A stretch of DNA of 21,020 nucleotides from Escherichia coli (lineage in GTDB: Bacteria; Pseudomonadota; Gammaproteobacteria; Enterobacterales; Enterobacteriaceae): assembly GCF_003334385.1 (NCBI RefSeq), contig NZ_QOWN01000060.1. The stretch is one strand, 5' to 3'. The position numbers and the translations under genes were made by a program. Shown piece after piece: positions 14,524 to 17,500 of this stretch (position 1 is its first letter; every line of letters starts with the position of its first letter). A model generated the notes under the pieces. The model was not told the origin of the DNA, did no database searches, and saw only the letters and a program-made list of their open reading frames with translations.

Positions 14524-17500
14524 ATGGCAGAGCAAACCTCGCGTCTCGCAATAATTATTGATAGCACTGGAGCGAAAAATAATGCTGACAATCTGACCTC
14601 CTCATTAGTCAAAATGACGCAGGCTGGGGAAACTGCTGCAAATAGCGCAGGGAAAGTGACTAAGGCAACAGAAGATGAGAAGAACGCGCTCGCAAAATTA
14701 AAAGCAGCTATTGATCCAGTTGGTGCCGCAATTGATACTGTCGGTCGACGCTATTCTGAATTAAAGAAATTTTTCGATAAAGGGCTTATTGATAAAGAAG
14801 AATATGAATTTCTTGTCCGTAAACTTAATGAAACCACAGAGGAATTGAGCGGGGTTGCGCAAGCGCAGAGAGAAGCCGAGAAGGCCGGAAAACTTGCTGC
14901 CGCCCAGCAGGAAGCGCAGGCTCAGGCCTTTCAAAGAATGCTGGACAAGATCGACCCTCTGGCTGCGGCGCTAAGAAATCTTGAACAACAGCATGATGAA
15001 CTTAATGCTGCGTTTGCATCCGGGAAAATAAATGGTTCTCAGTTTGAGAATTATAGCCGAAAAATACAGGAAACACGGCGAGAGCTTACCGGAGAGGCTC
15101 AGGCAGAGCGAGAAGCAGCAAAAGCGCATGATGAACAGGTTGTTGCTTTGCAACGTCTGATTGCTCAACTTGATCCTGTCGGAACTGCTTTTAATCGTCT
15201 GGTAGAACAACAGAAACAGCTCAATGAAGCAAAAGCTAAGGGGATGCTTTCTCCTGAAATGTATGAGGAGCTTTCTGGAAAACTTCGTGCTATGCGGAGT
15301 GAGCTTGAGGTTACTCAATCACAATTAAGCAAAACCGGAATGTCGGCAAAACAAACGGCTTTTGCTATGCGCATGTTGCCTGCACAAATGACGGATATTG
15401 TTGTTGGGTTGTCCACTGGTCAGTCGCCATTTATGGTGTTAATGCAGCAGGGCGGCCAGCTAAAAGATATGTTCGGTGGGATTGGCCCGGCGATCAAAGG
15501 TGTAGGTTCTTATGTGCTGGGATTAATTAATCCTTTTACCCTGGCCGCAGCAGCCGTTGGGGTCTTAGGACTGGCTTACTATAAAGGCTCTCAGGAGCAG
15601 GACGAATTTAATAAATCTCTTATTCTTACCGGAAATCAGTTGGGGACAACCAGCGGGCAATTGGGCGATATAGCTCAACGTGCCGGGAATGCGGCTGATT
15701 CGACAACTGGTGCTGCGGCGGCAGTATTAAATCAGCTTGTGCGTTCGGGAAAGGTAGCGAGCAGTTCGCTGGAGCAAGTGACGACAGCGATAGTAAAAAC
15801 GAGCGAAGTAACAGGAATATCAACCGAACAACTGGTTAATGACTTCAATGAAATTGCAAAGGATCCTGTCAGTGCCATATCAAAACTTAATGATCAGTAC
15901 CATTTTCTGACACTTGCGACTTATAACCAGATTAAGGCGCTACAGGATGAAGGGAACCAGCAGGAGGCCGCCCGCATTGCGACAGAAGAATACTCATCCT
16001 CAATGATCCAGCGCACCAACCAGATTAAAGAAAATCTTGGTTATCTTGAGACTGCATGGAAAGCTGTCGCAGACTCCGCAAAATGGGCATGGGATTCCAT
16101 GCTGGATATTGGCCGTGAGGCCTCCCTTGATCAAAAAATCTCAGATGTTCTCCGTCAAATTGATGAAATAGAAAAAAATACCCGACCCGGAGTTTTCGGG
16201 TTAGGTGGCATTGGAGATGGCGGAGCTCAAAATAAAAGGCTGGCACGATTAAAGCAGCAATTGGGCGTACTTCAAGCAGAAAAAATTGCTCAGGACGTAC
16301 TAAATTCATCAATAAACGATTACAACAAGCGACAACAGGAAGGAATTGAACTCAGACAGAGAGCAGATGCCTTTTCAAAACAATATCAGACCCGGGAGCA
16401 GCAGAGAGCTAGTGAACTTGCAAAACTGGAAAAGCTAAAGAATCAGTATTCAAAGGAAGAATATAATAATCTTATCGCTCAAATAAATGAGCGTTATAAA
16501 GATCCAAAGCAACCAAAGGCGAAAGGTTATTCTGATGATGCAGCCCAACGAATGATTGATCATCTGAATCAACAGAATGCGTTACTAAGTTCACAAGCTG
16601 AGTTGACCGTTAAATTAAGTTCCTCTGAACAGGAACTGGTTAAGTGGCGTCAGCGGATTGCCGACCTAGAGTCACGACCATCATCGAAATTAACCCAGGA
16701 TCAGAAATCGCTTCTCTTACACCGGGAAGAAATAACCGCGTTGATGGAGAAAAATGTTGCGATTGAAAAGAATAACAGGCTAATCAAGGAATCCGCCGAA
16801 ATAACAGCATGGCGTGATTCATTGCAGGCTTCGATTGATAATCGTCAGCAGGGGTATGATATTCAGATTGCTGGTTATGGGGTTGGCGATAAAAATCAGC
16901 AACGCCAGCAGGAATTACTGCGGATTGAACATGGATATAACAATCAGCGTCTGCAACTTGAACGTGACTATGCAGATAAATCCCGTGGAATGTCAGATCA
17001 TGTTTTTCAAGAGAAAATGCAGGCTCTGAATGATGCTCTGGAACGGGAAAAAGAAATTGTCAGACAGAAAAACGAGCAGCTCGATATTCAGGCAGGAGAC
17101 TGGGTTAGTGGTGCCTCCCAGGGATTCAATAACTGGCTGGATGACACTAAGGATATCAGTGAGCAGATAAAATCAACCACGACTCAGATGTTTGATGGGA
17201 TGACCGATGCGCTGGGTGATTTTGTCACGACAGGCAAGGCAAATTTTCGTTCTTTCGCTACTTCCGTGATTTCGGATCTTAGTCGAATAGCATTAAAGGC
17301 TTCAATTACTGGGATTTTCGACAGCATTAGTAACAGTTCTTCTGGGGGGATTTTAGGAACTATCGGGAGTGCTATTAGTAAATTTATTCCGAATGCAAAG
17401 GGCGGTGTTTATGAGTCTCCGTCATTGAGCACGTATTCGAACGGTATTTATGATTCCCCGCAATTTTTTGCTTTTGCAAAAGGGGCTGGTGTTTTTGGTG

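Follow-up and report, generated by a model that had tools for sequence, protein, structure and literature searches.

The 21,020-nt stretch of Escherichia coli DNA described here (contig NZ_QOWN01000060.1 of RefSeq assembly GCF_003334385.1; hereafter, the window) encodes, at positions 14524–17757 on the plus strand, a lambda H-type tape measure protein (TMP) for the tail, 1077 amino-acid residues long. Three contiguous units of 80, 73, and about 71 residues (R1, R2, and R3) lie near the N-terminus of this protein, between a conserved head segment and the TMP_2 domain, and probably serve as modules that lengthen the tail.

The assignment of the gene product as a TMP, already proposed in an initial annotation of the window, agrees with Pfam, TIGR01541, the lambda gpH structure, and gene order. 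Pfam matches are TMP_2 at residues 267–471 (1.4e-81), TMP_4 at residues 671–748, and Tape_meas_lam_C at residues 858–932 (3.9e-26); the TIGR01541 score is 218.7 bits, which is above the curated cutoff of 104.75; and the protein is assigned to phrog_24. The TMP_2 domain (positions 15322–15936, plus strand) includes hydrophobic segments and, according to Pfam and to BLASTP against lambda H, is common to lambda H. A PDB sequence search finds homology to the structure of lambda gpH (8iyk_H, 853 residues; E = 2.9e-70). It also finds a homologous TMP chain of 957 residues (9l9p_B), which is taken here to be phage T1 gp38. These domains, the TIGR01541 score, and the location of the gene between a G/GT pair and tail-tip genes place the protein in the lambda H type.

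R1 (residues 63–142; positions 14710–14949), R2 (residues 143–215; positions 14950–15168), and R3 (residues 216–286; positions 15169–15381), all encoded on the plus strand, are arranged head to tail with borders at residues 142/143 and 215/216. Each starts with an (I/L)DP(V/L)(G/A) motif, at residues 63, 143, and 216 (positions 14710, 14950, and 15169). In addition to alignment and AlphaFold prediction, the units are delimited by a unit profile (E = 7e-18 for R1, 1.4e-22 for R2, and 2.2e-25 for R3) and by a unit tree, in which R1 clusters with the first units of relatives; R1, R2, and R3 are accordingly termed first-type, middle-type, and last-type units. The C-terminal third of R3 is also the start of TMP_2 and the point at which the alignment with lambda H begins. 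Three tandem N-terminal repeats of ~75–80 residues, spanning positions 14710–15390, had been claimed in the initial annotation: the repeats are found and the start is exact, and the end (residue 289) lies 3 residues beyond that of R3. Only R1 and R2 have the AQ(A/R)EREAEKA-like ending claimed for all units; the C-terminal part of R3 instead forms the beginning of TMP_2.

The similarity of the units was evaluated by local BLOSUM62 alignment against 1000 composition-preserving shuffles. The scores are 127 for R1/R2 (shuffled, 30.8 ± 5.6; z = 17.2), 73 for R1/R3 (shuffled, 27.5 ± 4.8; z = 9.6), and 81 for R2/R3 (shuffled, 25.0 ± 4.6; z = 12.2), and in each of the three pairs none of the 1000 shuffles equals the observed score. 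Self-alignment, the check suggested in the initial annotation, thus reveals repeats that exceed coiled-coil composition (z = 9.6–17.2). The unit profile, which was built from 152 non-redundant units of many proteins, detects the three copies at E = 7e-18 to 2e-25, and no further unit in the protein scores better than E of about 100, including in the coiled-coil stretch at residues 480–860. Because the profile ignores this stretch, the repeat signal does not reflect generic coiled-coil composition. The three tandem repeat units are therefore confirmed as contiguous units whose similarity goes beyond composition.

The duplications that gave rise to the units are old, because third-codon-position identity between units is only 30–36% (overall nucleotide identity, 43–48%; aligned 53-codon core). 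No DNA-level repeat with a period of ~230 nt is found by TRF at a low threshold or by a seed-based direct repeat search, because synonymous sites are saturated, and no recent duplication is visible in the DNA of this gene. Overlapping R2 and R3, a reverse-strand open reading frame (ORF) of 115 amino acids (positions 14971–15318) finds no match in PHROG and is taken as spurious; most likely, it results from the richness of the coding strand in GCN/GAR/CAR.

The segment upstream of R1 (residues 1–62; positions 14524–14709, plus strand) is outside the repeats and has no match to the repeat profile. Its start (MxEQxSRLAIxIDSxGA) is conserved in relatives, and the AlphaFold confidence is low for residues 1–46. 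This head segment is probably the neck-proximal end of the ruler, by analogy with phage 80alpha, in which the TMP's N-terminal ends are located in the neck and bound to the tail completion protein (PMC11661146).

A degenerate half-unit (helix-Gly-Ile...Tyr) is observed in the middle of the protein at residues 627–657 (positions 16402–16494, plus strand), with a profile match that is not significant here (E = 170–370). These residues align with residues 419–450 of lambda H, where a half-unit has E = 0.005 (Z = 1000). The DNA repeat family D1 pairs positions 14794–14831 with 16453–16490, that is, R1 with the half-unit region. Clearer half-units are present twice in the homologous protein P0067, at about residues 705–731 and 855–880, and a copy there includes the Gly-Ile part. 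The mid-protein half-unit may be what remains of an earlier spread of this motif along the ruler.

Across the 152 units, the conserved positions are L2, I/L6, D7 (89%), P8 (100%), L13, L16, L23, G30 (94%), I/L32, F/Y37, Y/L40, L/I44, R48, and L51, and hydrophobic residues are spaced by 3–4 residues (heptad) in both helices of the unit. Whereas units share only 20–35% identity, the Asp-Pro and the Gly are near-invariant and the aromatic positions are conserved, a pattern that points to a defined structural element rather than a featureless spacer. AlphaFold, run on the first 327 residues with an 11-sequence alignment, predicts helix A at residues 65–85, a loop at residues 86–90 (KGLID), and helix B at residues 91–143 for R1; the corresponding elements are at residues 145–166, 167–170, and 171–216 for R2, and at residues 218–238, 239–243, and 244–270 for R3. 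Each unit is thus predicted to consist of a helix A of ~21 residues, a loop of 4–5 residues at the conserved Gly, and a helix B of 27–53 residues, and the predicted helix breaks coincide exactly with each Asp-Pro. When a single unit is modelled by AlphaFold with 46 diverse units (pLDDT 82.7; pTM 0.58), the best matches in the PDB found by Foldseek are antiparallel helical hairpins (TM 0.63–0.66; rmsd 1.3–2.5 Å; E non-significant), including the ESCRT-I headpiece and a phage integrase coiled coil, which serve as shape descriptors only. The same search with the 327-residue N-terminal model finds nothing in the PDB better than E of about 1. As modelled, the monomeric unit would be a folded-back hairpin with a long overhang of helix B.

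No Pfam-A family covers the unit. Membership in the SHOCT family (PF09851) is rejected in that only R1 matches (residues 79–101; E = 0.0088) and most units are not significant. One of 22 units reaches E ≤ 0.001 with alignment A1; with alignment A3, the 20 families listed contain the SHOCT-like DUF1707 but not SHOCT itself, and 0 of 46 units reach E ≤ 0.001. For SHOCT-type families, even a threshold of E ≤ 0.1 is attained by only a few of these 22 and 46 units. In R1-type units, the core resembles the helix-Gly-helix motif of SHOCT, but the unit is three times longer and is N-terminal and internal, whereas SHOCT is a short C-terminal domain; the likeness is a resemblance, not membership. A search of the PDB with unit profile A1 finds the T1 TMP at E = 0.01. 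Many near-identical chains of influenza haemagglutinin HA2 also appear in this search (residues about 58–96; E = 0.05–0.2); this segment of HA2 undergoes a loop-to-helix "spring" transition. HA2 and the TMP unit are alike in being trimeric helical elements with a Gly-containing turn; this resemblance is not significant and is treated as chance.

Comparison with lambda H locates the origin of the difference in length. With the lambda-type H of 859 residues used in BLASTP (canonical gpH has 853 residues), residues 270–935 of the TMP align to residues 57–710 of H (29% identity over 700 columns), and the homology recurs at the C-terminus. The two proteins have the same domains and the same gene setting (a G/GT frameshift upstream and M-L-K-I downstream), and the same role as a ruler is expected. 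The difference is that lambda gpH has no significant N-terminal unit and only the borderline half-unit at residues 419–450. The excess over the 859-residue H is composed of +213 residues in the N-terminal part, +12 in the middle, and −7 in the C-terminal part (+218 in all). Upstream of the lambda-alignable block, the unit stretch occupies residues 63–269 (207 residues); because 207 of the 213 extra N-terminal residues belong to units, the units account for essentially the whole difference in length. An excess of ~220 residues over the 853-residue lambda H had been given in the initial annotation, and the calculated values are +224 (853-residue H) and +218 (859-residue H). Its proposal that repeat gain explains the excess holds in that the units supply nearly all of it, whether by gain in this protein or by loss in lambda.

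T1 gp38 (PDB 9l9p chain B) and Rtp gp37, TMPs of the same family from Drexlerviridae (921–957 residues), have one clear unit at the same relative position (residues 71–143 in T1; residues 70–138 in Rtp, E = 2e-14). In these proteins, the single significant unit is followed by a degenerate stretch, in contrast to the three units of the present TMP.

The distribution of the unit was determined by a search of 1.84 billion representative proteins with the unit profile (A1), in which 451 clusters match at E ≤ 1e-3 and 114 at E ≤ 1e-10. Hits from this representative-library search were pooled with those from a word-indexed homologue search; the latter are mostly truncated fragments (523 residues or less) and were used for copy counting, not for total lengths. 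Among the pooled proteins, 108 of at least 700 residues have a TMP_2-like core. Six outliers without such a core were checked, and all match PHROG TMP families (P0128 weakly); the unit therefore appears to be TMP-specific. Five of the six carry two to nine units at other positions, and P0081 carries five. Among TMPs without TMP_2, P0074 (1786 residues) has nine units at residues 854–1605, the five units of P0081 (813 residues) have a shorter period of 63 residues, the four units of P0167 are about 110 residues apart, and P0107, which has a PHROG TMP match, also bears a longer unit array.

TMPs of the TMP_2 type have from 0 (lambda) to 5 copies of the unit, and the median start of TMP_2 for 0, 1, 2, 3, 4, and 5 copies is residue 74, 158, 265, 287, 338, and 399, respectively. 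In 93 proteins of <1400 residues, total length depends on the start of TMP_2 with a slope of 1.006 (r = 0.76). The comparison of copy number among homologues suggested in the initial annotation thus yields 0 to 5 copies, with N-terminal length tracking total length.

Close relatives differ by whole units. P0067 (1195 residues; 52–62% identical) has four units, including an extra middle one, whereas the two units of P0072 and P0036 are of the first and last types; the number of middle-type units varies among close relatives between 0, 1, and 2. In a neighbour-joining unit tree, units group by position (first, middle, or last) across relatives, and the array therefore evolves by insertion and deletion of units. 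Single-unit proteins carry a last-type unit in this tree, and other lineages have recent duplications of their own, for example units 3 and 4 of P0073. Alignments of phage TMPs with the present TMP start at residues of about 138–143 for T1-like phages and Webervirus, about 200 for Vibrio and Pseudomonas phages, and about 253–272 for lambda, Stx, and Ralstonia phages, which indicates that TMP forms with zero, one, and more units are all common. In P0070 (711 residues), an in-frame deletion of 25 residues joins R3 directly to TMP_2 at a junction between short direct repeats (AMR); this could have arisen by natural deletion or stem from an error of assembly.

Repeats with variable copy number are already known in TMPs. 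They include aromatic repeats of 11 and 18 residues in mycobacteriophages and TP901-1 and a 40-residue repeat in the lactococcal phage p2; a proposed effect of these repeats is to make it easier for the ruler to gain or lose length, and tail length responds to deletions and duplications (PMC3271669, PMC5099701). The units described here resemble the published repeats (Belcaid 2011, PMC3271669; Mahony 2016, PMC5099701) in being tandem within the TMP and in varying in copy number between relatives (0–5 among homologous TMPs, with whole-unit differences at 52–62% identity). They differ in their period (73–80 residues, not 11, 18, or 40), in their signature (D-P ... G ... F/Y with conserved Leu/Ile, not a Trp/Phe spacing of 11 or 18 residues), in their predicted helix-loop-helix structure, in their location on the N-terminal side of the hydrophobic core, and in being ancient, diverged copies. 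The ~75-residue unit is thus a different repeat family, and no description of a ~75-residue D-P...G unit in TMPs was found in the literature searched, within the limits of the library used. The statement in the initial annotation that tape measure repeats set tail length in steps has its published basis in the 11- and 18-residue aromatic repeats, which are of a different family (PMC3271669, PMC5099701).

The genes around the TMP gene constitute a standard siphovirus tail module. The order before the TMP gene is adaptor, head closure, tail completion, tail terminator, a tube-type protein of 320 residues, and a G-like tail assembly chaperone (positions 13589–14050, plus strand; phrog_313, E = 8e-47). 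The 3′ end of the G ORF reads ATA AAA AAG CCA TAG and contains the slippery heptamer A_AAA_AAG (positions 14038–14044) in the X_XXY_YYZ register, followed by a T extension in the −1 frame (heptamer and extension, positions 14038–14358, plus strand). The T ORF, which is listed as 14125–14358 and matches phrog_1189, reads in the −1 frame with respect to G, and this frame is open from G. Judged by these sequence features, this is the canonical G/GT programmed −1 frameshift arrangement upstream of the TMP gene, at which frameshifting itself would be expected. Lambda M-, L-, and K-like tail-tip genes are located directly downstream of the TMP gene (positions 17750–19535, plus strand; phrog_14, phrog_18, and phrog_30).

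A terminator-like hairpin (positions 14478–14510) with a 10-bp stem (GAAACCCAC...GTGGGTTTT), a 4-nt loop, and a T-rich tail lies after the T frame and ahead of the start codon of the TMP gene (position 14524), within the late tail operon. Two terminator-like sites are found in the 2-kb region, against 2.0 expected by scan, and this hairpin may be a chance occurrence or an attenuator. A tandem DNA repeat at positions 3930–4003 (36-nt period, 2.1 copies, with a nested 12-nt period), inside the ORF at positions 3792–4886, is unrelated to the TMP repeats.

That the window is related to the defective Rac prophage, but intact, follows from trkG, a marker of Rac, at its left end (positions 272–1747) and from E. 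coli K-12 ynaA, which is a remnant of the same TMP gene. K-12 ynaA is a pseudogene in which only the first 933–935 nt of the TMP gene are kept, with the three repeats and the beginning of TMP_2; it is fused to a lom remnant, adjoins an IS5-family element, and can now be annotated as a remnant that bears exactly these three units. Salmonella phage SPF_0923 has a TMP gene with 99.9% identity to the present one. Matches to the 5′ 1077 nt of the gene occur in 1073 of 5426 complete E. coli genomes, and at least 80% of this sequence is covered in 1062 of the 1073. All full-coverage matches among those listed are single-piece alignments, except for one with an IS1 insertion, and the three-unit form looks fixed within E. 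coli.

Tail length is set by the length of the TMP, and in TP901-1 the tail changes in proportion when the TMP carries deletions or duplications (PMC5099701). In lambda, gpH forms a trimer whose C-terminal helix lies in the tip, and the tail has 32 gpV rings (PMC10721106); in T1, the rings number about 34, with a rise of 42 Å (PMC11945409). In the interpretation preferred here, to which a probability of roughly 0.75 is given, R1–R3 are three ancient tandem TMP modules of ~75 residues that act as add-on ruler lengths at the head-proximal end and give a longer tail. The array is inserted between the N-terminal head of the TMP and the conserved TMP_2 core, and each module is predicted to run from an Asp-Pro that opens amphipathic helix A, through a loop with the Gly, to the long amphipathic helix B. 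Polymerisation of the tube would start at the TMP's C-terminal end in the tip and stop at the end of the TMP, such that roughly 210 extra residues would make the Rac-type tube longer than that of lambda (about 36–40 rings versus 32). Copy number would change by gain or loss of whole units, mostly of the middle type, and this would be a major source of TMP length variation in the family. Beside the observed repeat, anatomy, copy variation, and length bookkeeping, the longer tail and the orientation of the units within it are probable by analogy with these phages.

The expected gain in length depends on the extent to which the units are extended. Full extension at 0.15 nm per residue converts +213 residues to about +32 nm, or about 7.5 rings, and scaling by whole-protein ratios of lambda and T1 predicts a tail of 161–173 nm, or 38–41 rings. 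If hairpins are kept in the tube, helix B totals about 126 residues, which corresponds to about 19 nm or about 4.5 rings.

Several points weigh against this interpretation. The AlphaFold hairpin, if kept inside the tube, would limit the contribution of each unit to roughly the length of helix B, and the conservation of Asp-Pro, Gly, and aromatic positions exceeds the need of a pure spacer, such that an additional role is possible. T1 has 104 residues more than lambda and only about 2 rings more, which hints at incomplete extension, the T1 ring count being approximate. The regression of total length on TMP_2 start is biased in that its proteins were chosen for having the unit, and mosaic C-terminal halves also alter length, as in P0072, which has two units yet 1078 residues. 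In addition, the literature search found no electron microscopy or tail measurement of phages with this TMP.

An alternative that overlaps with the preferred interpretation, and that has a real but clearly smaller chance of being correct, is that the units are folded helical hairpins for interaction or oligomerisation and contribute less than proportionally to length. Candidate roles in this case are docking of the G/GT chaperone, trimerisation, and a compressible buffer under the neck. The confident hairpin prediction and the structural matches, which are hairpins only, point in this direction, as do the near-invariant Asp-Pro and Gly and the conserved aromatic positions in units of 20–35% identity and the increase of about 2 rings for +104 residues between lambda and T1 (PMC11945409, PMC10721106). 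Monomer AlphaFold is, however, prone to fold amphipathic helices back on themselves, and with the ring counts given in the papers, the length per residue of whole TMPs (about 0.16 nm in lambda and about 0.15 nm in T1) is close to that of a fully extended helix. The weak SHOCT-like resemblance of R1-type units would also fit an interaction module, but most units lack a significant match to SHOCT (0 of 46 at E ≤ 0.001). A unit that contributes ruler length may additionally serve, for example, to bind chaperones or to pack the trimer.

A further idea, which is regarded as improbable, is that the units are bistable helix-loop-helix elements that can switch between hairpin and continuous helix, and that the head-proximal end of the ruler acts as a compressible or extensible spring. 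If so, the spring could buffer the termination of tail length or store energy for release of the TMP and DNA, and copy number would tune this property of the spring instead of simply adding 0.15 nm per residue.

Slightly less probable still is a function of the units mainly after ejection. TMPs are ejected and have been proposed to form a trans-envelope channel, a proposal taken up in PMC10721106 and PMC5099701. The units, which adjoin the hydrophobic segments of TMP_2, would then help, for example, to build or extend a conduit across the periplasm and inner membrane, and copy number would reflect adaptation to the host envelope, not tail length. The units are, however, highly charged amphipathic helices with nothing membrane-like in their sequence, and lambda, T1-like, and Rac-type phages share a host yet have 0, 1, and 3 units, respectively. 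Finally, the idea that there is no true repeat, but just the similarity of low-complexity A/E/Q/K-rich coiled coils, would fit the coiled-coil-like composition, weak SMC matches, and missing DNA-level repeat, but is refuted by the shuffles, which never reach the observed scores, by the unit profile, which passes over the other coiled-coil parts, by the in-register Asp-Pro and Gly, and by the whole-unit copy differences among homologues, including P0067.

Returning to add-on ruler lengths as the preferred interpretation, the biology overall is ordinary and expected for this class of proteins, and what is gained is a clean, testable tail-length module. The unit provides a defined and countable module of length variation for the very large family of lambda, T1, and Rac TMPs. 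The resulting prediction is that the tails of Rac-type phages would be about 4–8 tube rings longer than that of lambda, and the natural series of 0–5 units could give the tail length in nanometres that is contributed by each unit and thereby distinguish between an extended and a folded state of this ruler segment inside the tube.

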